This document shows, one piece after another, positions 46,109 through 63,626 of a stretch of DNA of 64,000 nt. The DNA lies in IMG/VR virus record IMGVR_UViG_3300043436_003510, positions 5,937 to 69,936 of that record; one strand, written 5' to 3'. Origin of the DNA: a virus. Below the pieces are notes generated by a model, which saw nothing but the letters and a program-made list of their open reading frames with translations, did not search any database and had not been told where the DNA came from. How positions within the stretch are numbered: the first letter of the stretch is position 1; each line of letters starts with the position of its first letter. Made by a program: the position numbers and the translations under genes.

Positions 46109-47350
46109 ATGAAATCTACACGGAAACAGGCGTTACGCATAGCCCAAAGACTGGGTTGCTATGGAGCGCACCAAAATGAAGACGGTGCATGGATGCCTTG
46201 TGCCGACCATGAAACATTCACCTCTGTGAGCAGGGGAGAGAAGCCTGCATCAAAGAAGTGGTTCATACCAGAACTTCAGCGCAAAGCAGCATCTGTGGCT
46301 GGTCGCGGACAGTTGTTTACTTCACGAGAAGAAGCGGTTGCTGAATCCAAAAAGAACGGCTGCTCTGGAGTCCGCGTAGTTATCGTCAATGGCGGAAAAA
46401 TGTATGCCGCCTGCATGCCAAAGAACAATGGGGCACCTGAAAACACTGGAATGATTTCTCCACGAAAAAGAGATTTTGAGCCGCTTGGCGAAAGAGGTGT
46501 TGTTTCTATTGAAACACTTCCAGACGGCGGTCTTGTTTCGGGCAAAGAGTATGACATTGAAGAGATTGATGCCAAGGGTTTTGTTAACTATGTAAGTCGT
46601 TCCACGGACCCAGATGTGTATACAAACCCAGACTCGGCTCGTGTTCGCTCACGCCAACTTGGTTGTATTGGTATTCGCTCATATACCGCCCGTGACGGCA
46701 AGAGGGTTTACCTTCCATGCACTAATGGTTCTGACTACAACCGCACCATGAATTTAAGACCAGATGGAAATAGAAAAAAGAAATCAGACTGCGGTTGCGG
46801 CTGCAGTGAAAAATCTTTAGCAAAAACTCCAGCACCTAAGAAAGACAAGGTTTTCGGCTCTAGAAAGAATCGTGTCGGTTCTGCGGGGTCACTTCGGTCT
46901 GCTGGTGACATTTCTATGACCCCAGAGATTGTTGCTTCTCTCACTAAAAAAGTAAGAGAACACAACGCCGAAGTTAAAAAAAACAAAAAGGAAAACTGGT
47001 CAAAGACTAATCTTCGTGCTCTTAAAGCAGTCTACCGTCGTGGTGCAGGGGCGTTCAGCGTAAGCCATCGCCCTGGAATGAATAGAAACCAGTGGGCCAT
47101 GGGGAGAGTCAATGCCTTCTTGAGACTGTTGTCAAGCGGTAGTGCCAAGAGTTCATACACAACAGACAATGACCTACTCCCCAAAGGGCACCCGTGGAAA
47201 AAGAAGGGGTTGTCTGGAAAATCATTTACTATTGACGGCGCTGAGCACTTTGCCGAGGAACTGACCGTTGGGATTAAGTCCATCGGAGATACAAAGTTTG
47301 TTGCTCAGAGGTTTATTGCGTTTCCGCTCCCCAAAGAGTGTGAAGAATAA
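46109..47350 (+). CDS. Multi-domain Cys-repeat head-region protein
   Basis: Three A...GC.G......G..(W/Y).(P/A)C repeats (DUF3721-like); LKAVYRRG.GAF..SHRP......WA.GRVNAFL domain. Confidence 0.65.
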   Translation: MKSTRKQALRIAQRLGCYGAHQNEDGAWMPCADHETFTSVSRGEKPASKKWFIPELQRKAASVAGRGQLFTSREEAVAESKKNGCSGVRVVIVNGGKMYAACMPKNNGAPENTGMISPRKRDFEPLGERGVVSIETLPDGGLVSGKEYDIEEIDAKGFVNYVSRSTDPDVYTNPDSARVRSRQLGCIGIRSYTARDGKRVYLPCTNGSDYNRTMNLRPDGNRKKKSDCGCGCSEKSLAKTPAPKKDKVFGSRKNRVGSAGSLRSAGDISMTPEIVASLTKKVREHNAEVKKNKKENWSKTNLRALKAVYRRGAGAFSVSHRPGMNRNQWAMGRVNAFLRLLSSGSAKSSYTTDNDLLPKGHPWKKKGLSGKSFTIDGAEHFAEELTVGIKSIGDTKFVAQRFIAFPLPKECEE

Positions 47351-48820: not shown

Positions 48821-48858
48821 AGGAGAGCCCCCGTCTTAATTGGCGGGGGTTCTTCTTT
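48821..48858 (+). terminator. Rho-independent terminator after capsid gene
   Basis: gagcccccgtc-ttaatt-ggcgggggttc followed by ttcttt. Confidence 0.75.
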
Positions 48859-48875
48859 GTCCAGAATTGAATGAA

Positions 48876-49394
48876 ATGAAAGAAAATCAACCGTTTCTAT
48901 ATTGCGGAAAACTTCCTAACTTTCAAGCGCTTCTCAATAAAGTTTTGTTACTGGATGATTCTCAATGGTTTTCTTTTAGGGAGCGCAAGTCTGGGGTTGC
49001 CGCAGAAAAAACAGACACAATTCCGCTTGTTTATGATAAGAAGATAAAACTGAGTTCATTTATTACTCATGAACTTTATGCAAATTTTGAATCCGACATA
49101 CAGGCCGCTGTTAAATTATGTAGCGTCGGCACAAGAATAGAGCAAGCAATGCTTGCAAGACTTGCTAACGGCGTGTCAATACCTAGACATAAAGACAAAG
49201 GGACTATAACTGCTTCTACTCACCGAATTCATGTTCCAGTCATCACAAACGAAAAATGTATTTTTACTGTTGACGATGAAAGCATGTCTTTGTCTGCTGG
49301 TGAAGTATGGATTATAGACAATGTTGACAGATACCACTCTGTTTCCAACATGGGCGAACAAAGCAGGATACATCTGATAATAGATGTCCGCTAA
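48876..49394 (+). CDS. Aspartyl/asparaginyl beta-hydroxylase-like 2OG-Fe(II) dioxygenase
   Basis: IPRHKD, RIHVPVITN, GEVW..DN...HSV.N.G...RIHLIID. Confidence 0.85.
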   Translation: MKENQPFLYCGKLPNFQALLNKVLLLDDSQWFSFRERKSGVAAEKTDTIPLVYDKKIKLSSFITHELYANFESDIQAAVKLCSVGTRIEQAMLARLANGVSIPRHKDKGTITASTHRIHVPVITNEKCIFTVDDESMSLSAGEVWIIDNVDRYHSVSNMGEQSRIHLIIDVR

Positions 49395-53024: not shown

Positions 53025-53085
53025 ACATAAAATTGTAGTCTCATCACAATCTTCACCTTGCAACTAGTCAAGATAAGTGCAGAAC

Positions 53086-53114
53086 TTGACAACCGCTGTT
53101 GGTCCAGATACTAT
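53086..53114 (+). promoter_or_regulatory. Sigma70/SigA-type leaderless promoter
   Basis: TTGACA-17-TACTAT, GTG start 7 nt downstream. Confidence 0.7.
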
Positions 53115-53121
53115 TTGTCTT

Positions 53122-53364
53122 GTGGAAAAACGAGAAGTAACAGAAGAAGAAGTCAAGTATCTAAATGCCGTGGATACAGCCATCAAAAGGGCAGCGGTAG
53201 TGATGGAACTTGCGGATATTGATGAGGATGAGTCATCCGAGGATTTTGACTCAATCTATGAGGATAGGTTTCATTGCGGAACCTGCATAGTGAGAACGGT
53301 TCTTGACGAGATTTGGCCAGAACTCAATAACCTCATGGATTACTACGAGCGCAAAACCCCATAA
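53122..53364 (+). CDS. Hypothetical acidic protein with HCGTC
   Basis: Start moved to GTG 53122 to fit the promoter. Confidence 0.6.
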   Translation: MEKREVTEEEVKYLNAVDTAIKRAAVVMELADIDEDESSEDFDSIYEDRFHCGTCIVRTVLDEIWPELNNLMDYYERKTP

Positions 53365-53395: not shown

Positions 53396-53424
53396 TTGCG
53401 AAACCTTGACACACCCTGTATAAT
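53396..53424 (+). promoter_or_regulatory. SigA-type promoter for phosphatase-deacetylase operon
   Basis: TTGCGA-17-TATAAT with TG extension; ACACCC in spacer. Confidence 0.7.
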
Positions 53425-53459
53425 GAGTGTGTCACATCTACTAGACATGAAAGGCACTT

Positions 53460-53933
53460 GTGGATAACAAATTAATTACACTTCCAGTCGTCTCCAATAT
53501 TGAGGAGGCAAAAAACTGGAACAAGAAATTCAAGTCCGTACTAACCGTCGGACCTAAAAAATTAGAGGTTGATTGGGGTCACCCAAATCACCGAATCTTT
53601 GAATTTGGCGATACCACGGGAGGACTCAACGCTCCCAAGATTGAAGAAATCAAGGAAGCGGTATTTTGGGGGGCAGAACAGGACGACCTTTTGGTTCACT
53701 GTCATGCTGGAATGTCTCGCTCAACATCTACGGCATGGGGAATCTCCATTGCTCGTGGGGCTGACCCGCTTGATTCATTTCTTGCTCTCAAAGAGGCTCA
53801 CCCAATGGATAGTCGCTCTCGCAAGAGGGACTTCATTCCCAATAGGCTTATTGTCAAGCATTTAATGGAAATATTTGACAACCAAGACTTAGAACTTATT
53901 AGAAAAGAACACTCACATGATGGATGGTACTAA
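53460..53933 (+). CDS. Cys-based protein tyrosine/dual-specificity phosphatase
   Basis: F.D, LLVHCHAGMSRS (HCX5R), PN. Confidence 0.88.
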   Translation: MDNKLITLPVVSNIEEAKNWNKKFKSVLTVGPKKLEVDWGHPNHRIFEFGDTTGGLNAPKIEEIKEAVFWGAEQDDLLVHCHAGMSRSTSTAWGISIARGADPLDSFLALKEAHPMDSRSRKRDFIPNRLIVKHLMEIFDNQDLELIRKEHSHDGWY

Positions 53934-53934
53934 A

Positions 53935-54855
53935 ATGAAAATTTACTACAACGAAAACTACACCGCTTCAAAGTATGCATTTGACACGACACGCAAGTCT
54001 CGTGCTATTGCTCAACGACTAGAAGTCAACCCAATCGCGAACCTAGAACTCACAGACCCCGAAACAGAAGCATTTACTGATGTTGACGGTCAGGTGACGG
54101 AGAGCAATTTCTCTCAGGTTGCTATTCAGCACCTTCAGAAACTCCACGACAATACATATTTTGAGGCTGTACTCAAAGGTAACCCTAGGGACTTGGCTGA
54201 ATCTCAAGGATTTGACTGGGACGAAGGAATCTACAAGATGGCTGTCTCTCATGCGTCGGGTCTCATTGCTGCTACACACGAAGCGTTAAGCAACAAGACA
54301 ACTTCAGGGAGTCTTTCATCAGGACTGCATCACGCTCACCTTTCATACGGCGCAGGGTTTTGCACATTCAATGGTCTCGCTGCTTCTGCTGATTACGCTA
54401 TTGAAGCATTCGGCGCAGAGCGTGTATTGATTCTTGACTTTGACGCTCACGCAGGTGGTGGAACATGGGAAATTGTCAACACTTACCACCCTGACAATGT
54501 TGTACAAGTTGATGTAACTTGCGCTGCTTTTGACACCTGGACACCAGAGGGCGAAAGTTCCATCTGGTACACAGGGCATCAGGATTACCGCAAGGATATT
54601 GACCGTGCTCTTGTGTACGCTTCCAAAAAGTTAGACAAGTTTGACCTAATTATTTACAACGCAGGCATGGACCCCCTCAACAGTGGCGTTTCCCTGGACG
54701 ACATTGTTTATCGTGAAGATGCTGTTCGTAACTTCATTGGAGATACTCCAGCAATCTACGCTCTTGCAGGTGGATACACATGGGGCAACAAGACAATGGA
54801 TGATGTCGTGGATTGGCACAGCATCACCCTGAAGACTTGGGCTGAGGCTAAGTAA
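53935..54855 (+). CDS. Zn-dependent histone-deacetylase-family enzyme
   Basis: GLHHA, GFCTFNG, ILDFDAH.G.GT, YNAGMDP, LAGGY. Confidence 0.9.
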   Translation: MKIYYNENYTASKYAFDTTRKSRAIAQRLEVNPIANLELTDPETEAFTDVDGQVTESNFSQVAIQHLQKLHDNTYFEAVLKGNPRDLAESQGFDWDEGIYKMAVSHASGLIAATHEALSNKTTSGSLSSGLHHAHLSYGAGFCTFNGLAASADYAIEAFGAERVLILDFDAHAGGGTWEIVNTYHPDNVVQVDVTCAAFDTWTPEGESSIWYTGHQDYRKDIDRALVYASKKLDKFDLIIYNAGMDPLNSGVSLDDIVYREDAVRNFIGDTPAIYALAGGYTWGNKTMDDVVDWHSITLKTWAEAK

Positions 54856-54874
54856 TACGAACTACAATATTGGG

Positions 54875-56647
54875 ATGTTCTCATTCCGTTTAAAGACTGG
54901 TAGAAATGCTGCTTCCGAATTAGGGGGCAGCATTTCTGTTGGTGCCAAGGCACTCGGACGCACTATCGGTCAAGCCCCACCCTCTGTCAAGCCTTCAGAA
55001 GAAGACGGAGATGGAGATGGGTTTAGAACTGGACCCGACGGCAGGGACAATATTCCAGTCACAAAACTACCTGAAATATTGACTACCGAAGCCTTAAAAA
55101 AAATGCGTTCCGACATTAACCCCGATTTTTTAAATCGTGAAAAAAGCCCGCAAAAAGACGACGGCGACGAGATGTTAAGTGCCGAAGAATTAATGAAACT
55201 CCCTGCGGAGAATTCACATAATCTTTCACTACTAGACGAAGAGTCATCAGACTACCTAGATAACCAACGCAAAATAAATTCTGGTTATATGAATCAGCGT
55301 GTGCGCAAAGATGGCGTCTTTATGCCAATCATCTTGCGAGAATGGGCTGATGGGACAAGAAGTATTTTTGATGGACATCATCGTCTTATAGCCGCATATG
55401 ATAATCACCCCAATTTTCAAGTTCCCGTATTCGTTTGGAAAGAAGAAGGAAATATGGAGGATGAGTTTAAGTCACTTGTAAGACAACTCACTGGTTTGGA
55501 AGTAAAGATTCTGGGGGCTCCTATCGGCGGTCTTGGTGACCCTTCAGACTTTGACGGCGATGGCGACGGATTTCTAACTGGACCCGACGGCAGGGACAAT
55601 ATTCCCGCACCAACACAAGTCGTTGACAATCTAAAAGGTGCGTGGAACAAACTGCGCGAAAAGAAAATGGCTGGCGACGAAGCCCGTGCCATCAAGGCCG
55701 CAAACCTTGTTAAAGGCAAGAAGCCAAAGACCCCTCAGGAAATAAACCAACTTCTAAGAGGCGCACGAACAAGGGAAGATGTGGTTGAGGCGAGAAAAAA
55801 TGTTCGTGAATGGGCCGAGTCAATTTTTGCTTTTGACGGATTAGGTGATGACGGCAGTAACAAAGTCGTAATATTTAAGGGTAAAACTGGCGTAAATATT
55901 GTTGGCAGAAAAAGAGAAGTTCCGTCGGTAAACGACCAAGACCCTGACGAGCCTTATCTACACATCAGAATCTCAGGCAAGATTGTTGACAAAGACGGTA
56001 AGGAAGTTGGCCTCTTTGAAAGAAGAGTTTTTCTTGACGACTACAACGCCGCTAAAAAACCGCACATATACAACGAAATTTTAAGAATGCAGCCAGAAGC
56101 AAGGGGTAAGGGAATCGGAGCGGATTTTACTCTTGCCTCAGAAGCACAATATGCGGCGATGGGACTAGATGAAATGCGCCTCAATGCTGGACTTGCGGAC
56201 GGCGTTTACACATGGCTTCGTGCTGGATACAGGTTTAAAAACGACAAAGAGCGTATTGACTTTGCCGAGACAATAGAAAAAAGATATCAGGCAATGCTGA
56301 AGGATGCTGGCAGTAAAGAAAACCTCATTAAGGGCGGATTTATGACGAGCGTTGGTGGCCGTGCATTTGACGACGACAAGACCGTAAAAATGCCAGAACC
56401 ACTGTTTGAGAGCATGGAACAACTGGAACTTTTCCTTAAATTTTTAGGAAGAGCAAAAGGTTCTCCGCAGGGGTCAGACAGGGAAATTCCGCCTGCGGCT
56501 TTTACGCTTTTTGGTGATTTTTCAAAAAGATTAATGCGTGGCATGAATAACGACCTCGTCAAGGATATTAACCCTAGTTTTTCCGTAAAAGAGAAAACGC
56601 TTGTTATTACAGGGCTTGACATTCTCACTACAAGGGTGTATGATTAG
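54875..56647 (+). CDS. DGDGDG-tagged effector: ParB-like domain + GNAT-like acetyltransferase
   Basis: Two DGDGDGF.TGPDGRDNIP tags; PII...IFDGHHRL.A; RGKGIG, L.AGL.DGVYTWLRAGY. Confidence 0.75.
   Translation: MFSFRLKTGRNAASELGGSISVGAKALGRTIGQAPPSVKPSEEDGDGDGFRTGPDGRDNIPVTKLPEILTTEALKKMRSDINPDFLNREKSPQKDDGDEMLSAEELMKLPAENSHNLSLLDEESSDYLDNQRKINSGYMNQRVRKDGVFMPIILREWADGTRSIFDGHHRLIAAYDNHPNFQVPVFVWKEEGNMEDEFKSLVRQLTGLEVKILGAPIGGLGDPSDFDGDGDGFLTGPDGRDNIPAPTQVVDNLKGAWNKLREKKMAGDEARAIKAANLVKGKKPKTPQEINQLLRGARTREDVVEARKNVREWAESIFAFDGLGDDGSNKVVIFKGKTGVNIVGRKREVPSVNDQDPDEPYLHIRISGKIVDKDGKEVGLFERRVFLDDYNAAKKPHIYNEILRMQPEARGKGIGADFTLASEAQYAAMGLDEMRLNAGLADGVYTWLRAGYRFKNDKERIDFAETIEKRYQAMLKDAGSKENLIKGGFMTSVGGRAFDDDKTVKMPEPLFESMEQLELFLKFLGRAKGSPQGSDREIPPAAFTLFGDFSKRLMRGMNNDLVKDINPSFSVKEKTLVITGLDILTTRVYD
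55027..55605 (+). repeat. Identical 30-bp direct repeat (55027-55056 and 55576-55605)
   Basis: aactggacccgacggcagggacaatattcc x2, encoding TGPDGRDNIP. Confidence 0.85.
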
Positions 56648-56650
56648 GCC

Positions 56651-56833
56651 ATGAATTACGAAGTAGAAATAATCAAAATTCTTATGGATAATAATGAAGT
56701 TCGCAAAGATTATCCACGCATTTGTGCTGTTGCAAAAGCGGTCGCACGAGAAGATGAAGACTATATGGAATATCTATGGGCTTACACCTCTGGCAAGCGA
56801 GACTGGAAAAAAGTAGAAAAAGAACTCGGCTGA
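56651..56833 (+). CDS. Small helical partner downstream of GNAT effector (candidate immunity)
   Basis: 60 aa, helix-EDED-helix; TATGAT 6 nt before ATG. Confidence 0.55.
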   Translation: MNYEVEIIKILMDNNEVRKDYPRICAVAKAVAREDEDYMEYLWAYTSGKRDWKKVEKELG

Positions 56834-60055: not shown

Positions 60056-61531
60056 TTATGCTTTTCTGTTTTTGGGAAGCAAAACAACTTTTTTGATTGA
60101 GTCATCATCTTTGTCTGGTTTTGCTCCAGCAAAGCCGTCACATAATGCTGTAACTTTCCCAGTTACATCAGGATATATATCTTTGACAGACTTGCGTATA
60201 AGACCGTCTTTCACTTTGGCTGATTTCGCTTTCAACCAGTCCGCCATCTTGCCCCAATGAGTAGGCGTGTGGCCCTCTTCGTACCCCATCAACCCTTGAG
60301 AAATTGTTTCAGCAACAAACTCTAAACCGTTAACCGAGGCGTACCCACTTACCTTTTGCCATTCCTCTCGTTGTGCAATATCCGCCCGCTCACTATCTGA
60401 CAAATCGTCCCATAGAGCATCTCTGTCGTTGAAGCGCGTGAAGTAAAACTTTTCAGCCTCTTCCATTAAATACATGAGCGCTAAACGCCGTCGCTCAGCA
60501 TCGGACTTGTCTTTATATCTAGCCTTGTCGCCTCTTATAAGAAGTTCACCACGAATGGCTACCTCTAATTCCTCATCCGTATCAAAACGCTGCCAATACC
60601 TTTCGGTAGACATTGCTTTTAAGTTTGCTACCAATTCCTTTTCAGACCTAGCATTAAAATTGATGCCATCCTTTTCAACAGCACGAAGAATATGTTTAGC
60701 GTGACCAAACTCATGAGAAGCAAGATATGCACCATAAAAAGAATCAATATCTTCCTTTGAATAACCAGCATCCCTCATGTCGGTAATAATCTTCAGCCCC
60801 CACCCATGGTCTCTCGCAAAAATAGGTTCCTTGTCTGGGCTAAAATCCAACCCAGCAAAAAATGGCTTGTCAGCGTTATCACTAGCGCCATACACAAAAA
60901 CGCCAGGAAGATTGCCACCAAACAAGCCCCCCGTCATCTTGCCGTCAACAGAAATAACATCAAGACGCTTAGCAGTTTCAGGGTCACGCTCGGCACCCTC
61001 CAAAAGCATCACAACACGAGAAACATCAATATTGCGAACAGAACCATCTTCATTGCGCGAAGGATACAAAGCAGTTAAATCTAAATCTTTATACAAATTA
61101 GGGAAAGCAGAACGAACAGCCTTACTCATATTTTTAGGGTCACGAATATCGCCGTGCTTTTTAGAAAACTTCTTCTCCAAGTTATCCAAGTTATCCAAAA
61201 TACTTTCAGCAGATTTAAACGGTTTGCGCTCCTTCCATTCAACAGAATTCTTAAAAGCCCACATTTGTTTAACAACATCGCCCCTATCATTCAAAACATT
61301 AATCTGCTCAATATCATTCTCATGCGAATGAGGTAAACGGAAAAACCTCAAAACACTGCCATTACGCTGAACCAAAGACTCAATATTCTTAGGAGCAGGA
61401 ACATTATCTCTGCCGTCAGGGCCCGTTAAAAAGCCATCACCATCACCATCAAAATCAGAAGGCTTCACAGGCTTAGCCGCACCAATAGCACGACCCAAAA
61501 CCTTCACACCAGAAATATCAGACAAACGCAT
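60056..61531 (-). CDS. DGDGDG-tagged effector with zincin metallopeptidase domain
   Basis: VKVLGRAIG..KPSDFDGDGDGFLTGPDGRDNVPAP; HEFGH and VSGYA..N..EFVAE. Confidence 0.8.
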   Translation of the reverse strand: MRLSDISGVKVLGRAIGAAKPVKPSDFDGDGDGFLTGPDGRDNVPAPKNIESLVQRNGSVLRFFRLPHSHENDIEQINVLNDRGDVVKQMWAFKNSVEWKERKPFKSAESILDNLDNLEKKFSKKHGDIRDPKNMSKAVRSAFPNLYKDLDLTALYPSRNEDGSVRNIDVSRVVMLLEGAERDPETAKRLDVISVDGKMTGGLFGGNLPGVFVYGASDNADKPFFAGLDFSPDKEPIFARDHGWGLKIITDMRDAGYSKEDIDSFYGAYLASHEFGHAKHILRAVEKDGINFNARSEKELVANLKAMSTERYWQRFDTDEELEVAIRGELLIRGDKARYKDKSDAERRRLALMYLMEEAEKFYFTRFNDRDALWDDLSDSERADIAQREEWQKVSGYASVNGLEFVAETISQGLMGYEEGHTPTHWGKMADWLKAKSAKVKDGLIRKSVKDIYPDVTGKVTALCDGFAGAKPDKDDDSIKKVVLLPKNRKA

Positions 61532-61773
61532 AACACACAATTATCACACAAAAAAGCCACAACTTTTCATCCACGACCAACCGCTCCCCTCGCAGACAAA
61601 ACCCCAAAACAACCAGCCACCAGCCGCAACACCACACACCACCCAAAACCAACAAGCCACTCGGCAGTACCCATTCAGTTTAATTTAAAAGAAACAACTG
61701 GGGATATAAAAATTTGGCACAGGCACGCCCGCGCTACCCAGCCCACGCACTTAGAAAGGAGTCCCGCCTTTTG

Positions 61774-62956: not shown

Positions 62957-63032
62957 TACGAAGCATGGACAGCAGTAGGATGATGACAGTCAAGAGCGGG
63001 ACTGCAAAGAAAAAACGCACGAACCATATCAT
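62949..63032 (-). CDS. 27-aa single-TM peptide
   Basis: MIWFVRFFFAVPLLTVIILLLSMLRND; overlaps both neighbours and fills the gap. Confidence 0.4.
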   Translation of the reverse strand: MIWFVRFFFAVPLLTVIILLLSMLRND

Positions 63033-63355
63033 CGCGTATCGCCGTCACCGCTAATGACCCCACGGGTATCACGGTCACCAAGTTTGTCCAAGTTCATGAC
63101 AGCGACATCGGAGAGTGGTGTGTTCAGTTCCATAGCAACCATAGCCACATACCAAAGGACATCGCCCAACTCAGCCAGTAGCACAGCCTTGCGTTCGGGG
63201 GTAATCTCGCCACCCTCGTCACGGATAGCCTTCTTCAATTTGCCAGCCACCTCGCCAGCCTCGGAAGCCATACCAAGGACGGTATAGACCAGTCCTGACT
63301 CTTTCGGGTACATAGCGGTCGTGGATGCAAACATCTGATAGTCGTCAATATTCAT
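63029..63355 (-). CDS. mazG: MazG-like nucleotide pyrophosphohydrolase
   Basis: DYQ..A..TA.YP, LG..SEAGEVA.K.KK..RD, ELGDVLWYVA; start ATG 63355. Confidence 0.88.
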   Translation of the reverse strand: MNIDDYQMFASTTAMYPKESGLVYTVLGMASEAGEVAGKLKKAIRDEGGEITPERKAVLLAELGDVLWYVAMVAMELNTPLSDVAVMNLDKLGDRDTRGVISGDGDTR

Positions 63356-63377
63356 GAGGGGTACATTACCATCACTA

Positions 63378-63626
63378 TTACCGCTCCTCGTACCATGTGC
63401 CGTCCTGATTGAGAACCATCCAATAGTACGGTGCGACACATTCGGAGACATTGACGGGTGCGTCTTTTGCCTCCCAACGACCAGGGTAGATACTAATCTG
63501 ACAGACGGGTGTGTCGTCATCTGTTGCCTCAGCAACGACTAGCAGTGTGGAGAGAGCCAACCCTCCCCATACAAGGGTGCGGACGGCGGTTCTAATGGTG
63601 TAGTAGATAGGTGCGTGTTTCTTCAT
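63378..63626 (-). CDS. Small membrane-anchored protein
   Basis: TM segment; leaderless promoter upstream. Confidence 0.6.
   Translation of the reverse strand: MKKHAPIYYTIRTAVRTLVWGGLALSTLLVVAEATDDDTPVCQISIYPGRWEAKDAPVNVSECVAPYYWMVLNQDGTWYEER

Follow-up and report, generated by a model that had tools for sequence, protein, structure and literature searches.

A predicted phosphatase and HDAC-family deacylase gene pair in uncultured freshwater phages, occasionally followed by a GNAT-fold gene

Introduction

Phages write marks on host proteins by means of kinases, ADP-ribosyltransferases and acetyltransferases; phage-encoded enzymes that erase such marks have, to our knowledge, hardly been studied. 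What, then, are two genes of the eraser kind doing side by side in a phage genome? The question is raised by a single viral record of 69,936 bp (IMGVR_UViG_3300043436_003510), of which we analysed bases 5937-69936 (the window, 64,000 nucleotides, to which all coordinates below refer). Here a gene for a dual-specificity-type (DUSP-type) Cys phosphatase is followed by one for an HDAC-family Zn hydrolase and then by one for a tagged protein with the fold of GNAT acetyltransferases. A preliminary description of this locus had proposed a writer/eraser symmetry, in which injected writers (a kinase and the GNAT protein) modify host targets and the two hydrolases reverse or limit these modifications later. 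We find this interpretation partly supported: the phosphatase-HDAC pair is a unit in its own right, the GNAT gene is an occasional addition to it, and we tentatively favour a role of the pair against marks written by the host.

The phage is an uncultured freshwater one, and lake-water metagenome runs contain DNA near-identical to the window. It is contractile-tailed (tail sheath, tape measure, large terminase, portal, prohead protease and HK97-type capsid protein are encoded), and its record also encodes a ribonucleotide reductase-like gene (RNR) and MazG; CheckV puts the completeness of the record (G000) at ~47%. When the region was compared by blastn with 50,697 deposited phage records, none matched.

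Related loci were collected around anchor genes. For the HDAC-family gene, the best 80 of 99 viral relatives were kept, described by hidden Markov model scans and gene-order tables, and sorted into 59 clusters within which HDAC identity is 95%. The phosphatase-anchored sample comprises 13 full-length loci, and an unbiased sample anchored on RNR took the best 80 of 371 relatives, of which 48 with at least 5 kb upstream gave 30 deduplicated clusters (1.03 Mb). Genes in related loci are simple open reading frame (ORF) calls made for this analysis, and the loci come mostly from one lineage and are therefore not independent of each other, which bears on the counts of loci and clusters given below.

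Results and Discussion

A conserved gene pair

The phosphatase and HDAC-family genes had been described as lying 1 nt apart, and this is confirmed. The HDAC-family ORF can be read as 312 aa from 53917 or as 306 aa from 53935 (end 54855), and the second start (MKIYYN) agrees with the N-termini of its homologues (consensus MKxFYN); since the phosphatase stop ends at 53933, the ATG at 53935 leaves a gap of 1 nt. Of 20 related loci, 18 likewise have a short distance from phosphatase stop to HDAC ATG, between -1 and +15 nt; in the remaining two the gap is 59 nt or no ATG was found. Among the HDAC-anchored clusters, the phosphatase gene lies directly upstream of the HDAC gene in 21 of the 56 that could be scored (absent from 35; 3 of the 59 unjudgeable). 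The RNR-orf115 context of the window's phage is shared by 19 of these 21, and the other two lie elsewhere, one with the order DUF932-phosphatase-HDAC (L036/L038/L039) and one in L070; in all, the pair occurs in at least three genomic contexts. Gene order and spacing firmly point to a conserved, translationally coupled pair that moves as a unit.

The operon-like layout of the preliminary description, with a tagged GNAT gene next in line, also holds: the GNAT-fold gene, with its two tag copies, begins 19 nt past the HDAC stop, and no terminator-like site was found on the + strand between 53396 and 56833. The promoter that had been proposed to drive the operon, TTGCGA-17-TATAAT (TTGCGA at 53396-53401, a 17-nt spacer and TATAAT at 53419-53424), is present ahead of the phosphatase gene. 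Between 52600 and 61700, 12 promoter-like matches were found against 14.4 +/- 3.6 in shuffles, no more than expected by chance, so this site alone proves nothing. Relatives have promoter-like matches at the same position upstream of the phosphatase gene, 12/12 in L036 and 11/12 in L038, L042 and L045, scored without a shuffle control.

The same upstream position holds a further element: a GGTTGC...CTACACTTACGGTAT block recurs there in about ten other relatives (judged by eye, without a shuffle control). A conserved GGTTGC(N)AAACC...GGCTACACTTACGGTAT block precedes the phosphatase gene in L047, L051, L052, L072-L074, L079, L085 and L097, where it overlaps a TTGCnA-18-TACACT promoter-like site; it resembles an early promoter or operator particular to that lineage.

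Table 1. Positions of the locus and of other features in the window.
Feature	Coordinates	Strand	Basis or remark
Candidate sigma-70-like promoter TTGCGA-17-TATAAT	53396..53424	+	10/12 consensus positions; within the 95-nt spacer that precedes the phosphatase gene
Predicted dual-specificity-type Cys phosphatase, 157 aa, GTG start	53460..53933	+	Fold model and invariant motifs
HDAC-family (arginase/deacetylase fold) Zn hydrolase, 306 aa, class IV/cluster-5-like	53935..54855	+	Pfam PF00850
590-aa tagged protein with predicted GNAT-fold C-terminal domain	54875..56647	+	AF2/Foldseek, motif A
ParB-like cassette: first tag copy and ParB-like segment, 549 nt (183 codons), in frame	54992..55540	+	
60-aa ORF	56651..56833	+	Kept in relatives: tblastn matches in L002, L006, L009
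494-aa tagged protein, module at nt 61397-61450, HEFGH at 60701-60715	60056..61540	-	Motif only
95-aa ORF upstream of the phosphatase gene	53077-53364	+	
DUF3721+DUF5824 protein, just upstream of the capsid gene	46109-47350	+	
Asp/Asn beta-hydroxylase-like 2OG oxygenase, just after the capsid gene	48840-49394	+	
MazG pyrophosphohydrolase	63029-63535	-	

A DUSP-type phosphatase with intact catalytic residues

That the first gene encodes an HCX5R phosphatase is borne out by its motifs and by its modelled fold. The P-loop, HCHAGMSRS (aa 80-88, nt 53697-53723), conforms to HCX5R(S/T), and the 38 aligned family members show no variation at H80, C81, H82, A83, G84, S86, R87, S88 or T89. Equally invariant (38/38) is D51 (nt 53610-53612), 30 residues before C81, a candidate for the general acid, a role that we take to be the same as in other DUSPs. 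The match to the Pfam family DSPc (PF00782) is sub-threshold (E 0.0023, 18.2 bits vs a cut-off of 33.5); the family comprises 136 proteins at E<=0.001, and a precomputed PF00782 annotation is present in 11 of 120 listed relatives. A PDB sequence search gave weak matches to protein tyrosine phosphatases (PTPs), the best being 7ezn (E 0.013). The AlphaFold2 (AF2) model (pLDDT 92.9, pTM 0.89) retrieved 104 PDB structures with Foldseek at E<=0.001. DUSPs and PTPs fill the top ranks (prob 1.00, TM 0.5-0.6), with Tk-PTP, DUSP14, DUSP5, vaccinia VH1 and an archaeal-virus dual-specificity phosphatase (DSP) as the best structural matches. Because the model has the DUSP fold and the catalytic residues are invariant, the product can be assigned to the DUSP-type Cys phosphatases, with its catalytic apparatus intact. 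No match to it was found by tblastn in the 50,697 deposited phage records.

Relatives of this phosphatase occur in bacteria. Twenty-five full-length cellular relatives (~180 aa, 34-54% identity; L184-L208) lie on high-GC contigs of Actinomycetota metagenome-assembled genomes (MAGs), which belong to freshwater Ilumatobacteraceae, Acidimicrobiia; GC content is 45% in the phage vs 58-70% in these contigs. The phosphatase-cluster gene is held by 16 of the 25 MAG loci, and runs of identical neighbour clusters recur in many; in the one MAG locus scanned with Pfam the neighbours are ROK, GT4, QueG-like, PrsW, GHMP kinase and TrpD-like genes. An HDAC gene adjoins the phosphatase homologue in 0 of the 25. 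Given these MAG relatives with recurring neighbours, the phage phosphatase resembles an Actinomycetota chromosomal gene, and the sequences hint at the host phylum or at the source of the gene.

A class IV-like HDAC-family enzyme

The second enzyme had been said to be an HDAC-family member with intact motifs, and so we find it. Pfam PF00850 (Hist_deacetyl) matches at 7.1e-22, with 78.5 bits vs a cut-off of 27.9. Its motifs are SSGLHHA (aa 128-134), DFDAHAGGG (168-176), YNAGMDP (241-247) and AGGY (278-281), with HH at nt 54328-54333, DFDAH at 54436-54450, D246 at 54670-54672 and GGY at 54769-54777. None of the 29 aligned family members departs from H132, H133, D168, D170, H172, D246 and G279-G280-Y281; among these residues are what we take, by analogy with HDAC8, to be the His pair, the Zn ligands and the catalytic Tyr.

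The 2998 relatives, about 290-330 aa long, come mostly from metagenomic contigs. The best solved one is VcHdaH of Vibrio cholerae (9gkv; 9e-21 with the single sequence, 1.2e-27 with the profile), followed among single-domain PDB chains by the short class IV-type enzymes 9rje, 9gz5 and 5zmp. PDB ranking and motifs, used without a tree, place the phage enzyme with class IV (cluster 5): it is closest to these proteins by sequence, it is a short single domain, and where they have G-G-x-H-H in place of the RPP motif it has SSGLHH. VcHdaH (9GKV/9GKY; sub-cluster 5b, in the cluster of class IV HDAC11) is likewise short and single-domain (318 vs 306 aa), the catalytic His pair, Zn ligands and Tyr are common to both, and the alignment runs through GGY. 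At about 30-35% identity, the two differ in the gatekeeper of the foot pocket (Leu/Met instead of Tyr) and after the Zn-binding Asp (DAHAGGG in the phage vs DVHHGDG). Unlike VcHdaH, the enzyme studied here is phage-encoded and paired with a phosphatase, and its activity is a prediction.

All robust deacetylases (clusters 1, 2 and 4; Graf et al. 2024) are reported to retain the RPP and XGGY motifs (PMC11532494); in the phage enzyme the HH pair is preceded by S-S-G-L, not by RPP. VcHdaH, in cluster 5 with HDAC11, has SGGYHH in place of RPP and is described as a weak, selective de-decanoylase (PMC11532494). Class IV enzymes of clade B are reported to favour medium or long acyl chains, and those of clade A are described as having no peptide deacylase activity, with non-protein substrates proposed (PMC13325672). 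With VcHdaH weak, RPP absent and clade A devoid of peptide activity, 'deacetylase' would be an assumption, and it is safer to call the phage enzyme a predicted deacylase and to leave the acyl substrate unspecified. The warning given with the original proposal, that HDAC-family enzymes need not deacetylate proteins, was apt. Membership of the acetylpolyamine amidohydrolases (APAHs) was considered and not adopted, the match to 3q9b being weak and partial (E 5.9e-5, aa 91-181).

The sole deposited phage match for this HDAC subfamily is gp202 of Rhodococcus phage E3 (38.6% identity), annotated without further comment and with no phosphatase or GNAT neighbour annotated. A close cellular source of the subfamily was not found in 5 phosphatase-bearing Actinomycetota MAG genomes, which hold distant HDACs only (E 4e-9 to 6.5e-8).

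A GNAT-fold protein as occasional passenger

The protein encoded behind the pair consists of an N-terminal module with a first tag copy (55004-55057), a ParB-like segment (a weak match, with DGHHR at 55370-55384), a second tag copy (55553-55606) and the GNAT-fold domain. It has no Pfam family (for the C-terminal part, 0 matches even at E<=10) and no PDB sequence match. GNAT motif A has the form R/Q-x-x-G-x-G/A; the corresponding residues here are R410-G-K-G-I-G415 (RGKGIG, nt 56102-56119), with all three Gly invariant in 21 of 21 family members. For the AF2 model of the C-terminal 360 residues (pLDDT 79.4), the PDB matches listed by Foldseek are all GNATs (NatD, NatC, SpeG, GmvT; prob 0.96-1.00), modest ones with E about 1e-3 and TM by query of 0.16-0.25; the homologue in L009 reaches 17.1 bits for Acetyltransf_1, below the 20.7 cut-off. 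The protein is thus predicted, from model and motif, to be of the GNAT fold.

Of the 21 proteins in this family, the other 20 are 387-411 aa long and are without residues about 60-240, the ParB part. One contig of lake metagenome run X6 joins 54991 to 55541, skipping the ParB-like cassette, with 8 shared letters at the joint; the tag repeats align at a 549-nt offset, and removal of the cassette would leave a 407-aa form resembling the 387-411-aa relatives. Long and short forms both seem to exist in nature.

A GNAT-family gene follows the HDAC gene in 4 of the 56 clusters that could be scored downstream, all in the window's lineage (the script's count of 3 missed L002, with its 6-nt ORF overlap). 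Accordingly few pair clusters have one, 1 of 21, while 20 of 21 do not. The pair is also present in G002, a relative bounded by direct terminal repeats and 100% complete, in which the A2 profile of the GNAT family and the Pfam models Acetyltransf_1 and Pkinase all matched nothing. In the other direction there is support: all five distinct GNAT-family loci found in viral contigs (L002/L235, L023/L233, L024/L025/L234, L029/L112 and L033) directly follow a same-strand HDAC gene, and two of them, L029/L112 and L033, keep HDAC and GNAT with the phosphatase absent. A GNAT-profile scan of viral contigs returned 3 loci, none beyond the known five. The GNAT gene is thus an occasional passenger, and in the loci found one that is always behind an HDAC. 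The co-occurrence of erasers and writers proposed as a check of the symmetry finds support in one direction (a GNAT gene comes with an HDAC gene, 5/5) and largely lacks it in the other (pair without GNAT in 20/21 clusters and in G002).

Where the GNAT protein might act is suggested by its wider family. A profile of the 590-aa family has 1738 representatives at E<=0.001, many of them very large multidomain proteins (1000-7600 aa; P0262-P0409). Among 20 profile matches scanned with Pfam, the core stands behind Phage_min_cap2 (4.7e-54) in one and behind a weak Phage_Mu_F in one, and several carry Pfam GNAT matches; structure searches of BFVD and the Atlas also point to capsid-associated relatives of the GNAT-like core. 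From these minor-capsid/MuF fusions and structural matches, a virion-associated, and so virion-delivered, effector is plausible. The earlier idea of an injected GNAT effector thus fits the fused relatives, and the timing attached to it, erasure at a later stage, lacks support. Indeed 'injected first, erased later' does not fit, because the GNAT gene shares the promoter and the strand of the erasers, with no terminator-like site between them.

The tag module, DGDGDGFxTGPDGRDNxP, occurs 3x in the record, twice in the 590-aa protein and once in a minus-strand 494-aa protein; the N-terminal module that they share spans ~50 aa (..LGRxIG..KPS-DGDGDGFxTGPDGRDNxP). It is seen as well within other multidomain phage proteins, P0386 (N-terminal DUF3721, C-terminal DRAT ADP-ribosyltransferase) and P0368 (DUF6321). 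A packaging signal, a cleavage site and a linker are candidate roles.

No kinase found for the phosphatase to oppose

The other half of the proposed symmetry, a kinase whose action the phosphatase would reverse, was not found. Pkinase and HipA_C have 0 matches in the 70-kb record, itself only ~47% complete, and Pkinase has 0 in the records of 5 relatives, two of them at least 98% complete; the predicted co-occurrence of kinases and erasers is not supported by these records. The 494-aa tagged protein was considered as a kinase and rejected: it has no Pfam or PHROG match and no kinase similarity, and it carries HEFGH. This HExxH motif suggests a Zn metallopeptidase, and the Atlas gave a weak Peptidase_M90 lead only (0.88). 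NCBIfam has no family for the phosphatase, the HDAC, the GNAT or the tagged HEFGH protein. In everything examined, with the window's record half complete, no phage kinase was met whose action the phosphatase could reverse. Of the writer/eraser symmetry the kinase side fails, and the acetyltransferase side survives in a one-sided form only.

What the pair may do

Since the kinase symmetry fails and the GNAT link survives one-sided only, we favour, tentatively and somewhat short of calling it probable, a cassette of phosphatase and HDAC that acts on host-written marks and not on phage-written ones. The invariant catalytic residues, a mark of real enzymes under selection, the coupling of the two genes, the behaviour of the pair as a unit, its independence from phage writers, the host-like phosphatase and the promoter-like sites support this reading. 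In such a mechanism, host RNA polymerase would transcribe the pair from the sigma-70-like promoter, and the two genes would be translated as a coupled pair. The phosphatase would strip phosphate from Ser/Thr/Tyr of host proteins, with Cys81 as nucleophile, Arg87 holding the phosphate and Asp51 as general acid. The HDAC would bind Zn via D170, H172 and D246 and hydrolyse an N-acyl amide with H132/H133 and Y281; because it resembles class IV enzymes, the acyl chain removed may be a longer one than acetyl. Between them, the two enzymes would reset regulatory or defence-triggered marks of the host early in infection, and the downstream GNAT-fold gene would be an optional add-on, not the cassette's reason for being. 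The analysis establishes the folds of the enzymes, their invariant catalytic residues, the coupling of the genes and their spread among phages; substrates, timing and benefit to the phage are what we infer here.

Several observations weigh against this reading. In the RNR-anchored sample, 25 of the 30 deduplicated relatives carry neither phosphatase nor HDAC, nor GNAT; the others have the phosphatase only (2), phosphatase and HDAC (1), all three (1), or HDAC and GNAT (1, L112, whose GNAT gene lies just beyond the range covered by the script and was counted from locus inspection). The association of phosphatase with HDAC there is weak (2/2/1/25, Fisher p = 0.039, uncorrected for relatedness). 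The phosphatase alone is common (L003-5/13, L014/15, L177), and in the phosphatase-anchored sample the HDAC comes next in 7 of 13 loci, with 4 syntenic without HDAC and 2 in other contexts. The HDAC alone is common as well (35/56 scorable clusters, in other phage groups). As each so often stands alone, the two enzymes need not share a target. The position that we take to hold the second charge-relay Asp in HDAC8 is, moreover, Gly in the phage HDAC family. In other phage groups the neighbours of the HDAC gene are ParB_N, PAPS-reductase-like, ThyX, methylase and SNF2 genes, and further HAD phosphatase, sugar epimerase/dehydratase, DNA methylase, primase/helicase and PhyH dioxygenase genes. Individual loci show such flanks, ParB_N with PAPS-reductase-like or ThyX/HAD/epimerase/PhyH/SNF2 genes, in L034, L041, L043, L044 and L076 and in L061, L065, L077, L078, L091 etc.

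Such DNA- and nucleotide-metabolism neighbourhoods could point to a non-protein substrate, and this leads to a role in small-molecule or nucleic-acid metabolism, in which the HDAC would deacylate a non-protein amine (an acetylpolyamine, a sugar or cell-wall precursor, or a DNA base modification intermediate) and the phosphatase would act on the same or a neighbouring intermediate. The HDAC family includes acetylpolyamine amidohydrolases, viral ones being reported as active on acetylspermidine (PMC9992855); the non-protein substrates proposed for clade A (PMC13325672) agree with this, as do the possible small-molecule substrates raised for VcHdaH (PMC11532494). We nevertheless consider a metabolic role rather unlikely: the match to a solved APAH is the weak, partial one given above, the pair has no neighbour in the window from a polyamine or base-modification pathway, and the phosphatase has a protein-phosphatase-type DUSP fold with the conserved general-acid Asp. 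Somewhat less likely still, in our view, is that HDAC and GNAT form a writer/eraser pair in cis, the HDAC reversing or limiting acylation by the downstream GNAT as its antidote and the phosphatase being unrelated; such an antidote would protect the producing cell or bound the action of the GNAT effector, as AcuC does vs AcuA and DarG vs DarT. The five loci in which GNAT directly follows HDAC on the same strand fit this well, as do the two that dispense with the phosphatase and the RNR-anchored 1.03 Mb, in which the GNAT family occurs at 3 loci only, each beside an HDAC; a bacterial 628-aa HDAC-family cluster in the Atlas, with a non-HDAC part resembling the GNAT-fold domain of the 590-aa protein, is an unverified lead only. 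Yet, of the 56 clusters that could be judged downstream, 52 have the HDAC but not this GNAT (L002 counted as positive), as does the complete genome G002, and the five loci carry no statistical weight because they represent one phage lineage and possibly a single ancestral insertion. An HDAC fusion was seen in 0 of 20 Pfam-scanned profile matches, a search that was not exhaustive, and VcHdaH, the closest characterised enzyme, is not a robust deacetylase, with the RPP motif absent.

A special case of action on host-written marks, separate from it for specific targets only, is dedicated counter-defence against host Abi systems or toxins that phosphorylate (HipA/Stk2-type) or acylate (GNAT toxin-type) essential targets, which the preliminary description had offered as its alternative. 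The pair is accessory, occurs patchily and sits in a variable early region, as is expected for anti-defence genes, two eraser chemistries are tightly paired, and the T7 kinase is a reported case of phage phosphorylation directed against defences (PMC13645617). We regard this as quite unlikely, as PADLOC gave 0 matches for the phosphatase, the HDAC, the GNAT and the tagged HEFGH protein, no known anti-defence family was recognised, and no link between the pair and a host defence locus emerged. Aminoacyl-tRNA, which GNAT toxins acetylate, is not known to be a substrate of any HDAC-family enzyme. Action on host-written marks can also be taken further, to a general 'mark-eraser' weapon of freshwater actinophages whose HDAC was co-opted in a sub-lineage as the antidote of a capsid-delivered GNAT toxin. 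This combination is distinctly improbable; if true, host phospho- and acyl-lysine signalling, defence-triggered marks included, would be wiped at the start of infection, and the phages would provide the first phage eraser-based counter-defence and an acylation-based enzyme-antidote pair.

Relation to known systems

The enzyme kinds are known and their pairing appears to be new; full-text literature searches returned no paper on a phage phosphatase-HDAC pair, and its function is a prediction. The nearest arrangement for the acyl side is the acuABC operon of Bacillus, in which the GNAT AcuA is reported to acetylate AcsA and the HDAC-family AcuC to deacetylate it (PMC13121692). Both there and here a GNAT-fold and an HDAC-family gene share one operon; AcuC, however, belongs to cluster 2 (class I-like), whereas the phage HDAC is class IV-like and mostly without a GNAT, and the phage GNAT is a tagged protein of 400-590 aa whose relatives are fused to capsid-associated domains. 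The Legionella effector LphD is described as HDAC-like and as working with the methyltransferase RomA (PMC10104843; PMC11532494). It too is an invader's HDAC-family enzyme directed at host marks in concert with a second modifying enzyme, but it belongs to cluster 3 and acts on eukaryotic histones, whereas here the host is bacterial and the partner a phosphatase.

For the phosphatase the likeness is to viral DSPs (poxvirus VH1/H1; Sulfolobales Beppu filamentous virus 3), which have the same fold, an HCxAGxxR(S/T) loop and an upstream Asp and are among its Foldseek matches (2q05, 3cm3, 2p4d, 8gz4, 7ncy; 15-21% identity). Unlike these, the phage phosphatase belongs to a bacterial virus, and its closest cellular relatives are the freshwater Actinomycetota MAG genes. 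The GNAT protein recalls MuF/minor-capsid-fused polymorphic effectors, in which relatives of its core stand at the C-terminus of Phage_min_cap2, weakly of Phage_Mu_F, and of giant multidomain proteins; in contrast to these it has no MuF or minor-capsid domain, carries the DGDGDGFxTGPDGRDN module and is encoded outside the head block, as part of an early-type operon.

A coupled pair in abundant lake phages offers a defined entry point to the way in which phages may reset bacterial post-translational marks, and a natural source of compact class IV-like deacylases.

Neighbouring genes

The 60-aa ORF that ends the locus has no Pfam or PHROG match. Upstream of the phosphatase gene, the true start of the 95-aa ORF is probably later than annotated, because relatives match residues 29-95 only. 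A second promoter-like site, TTGACA-17-TACTAT (53086-53114), lies within this annotated start and may be a real divergent-region promoter.

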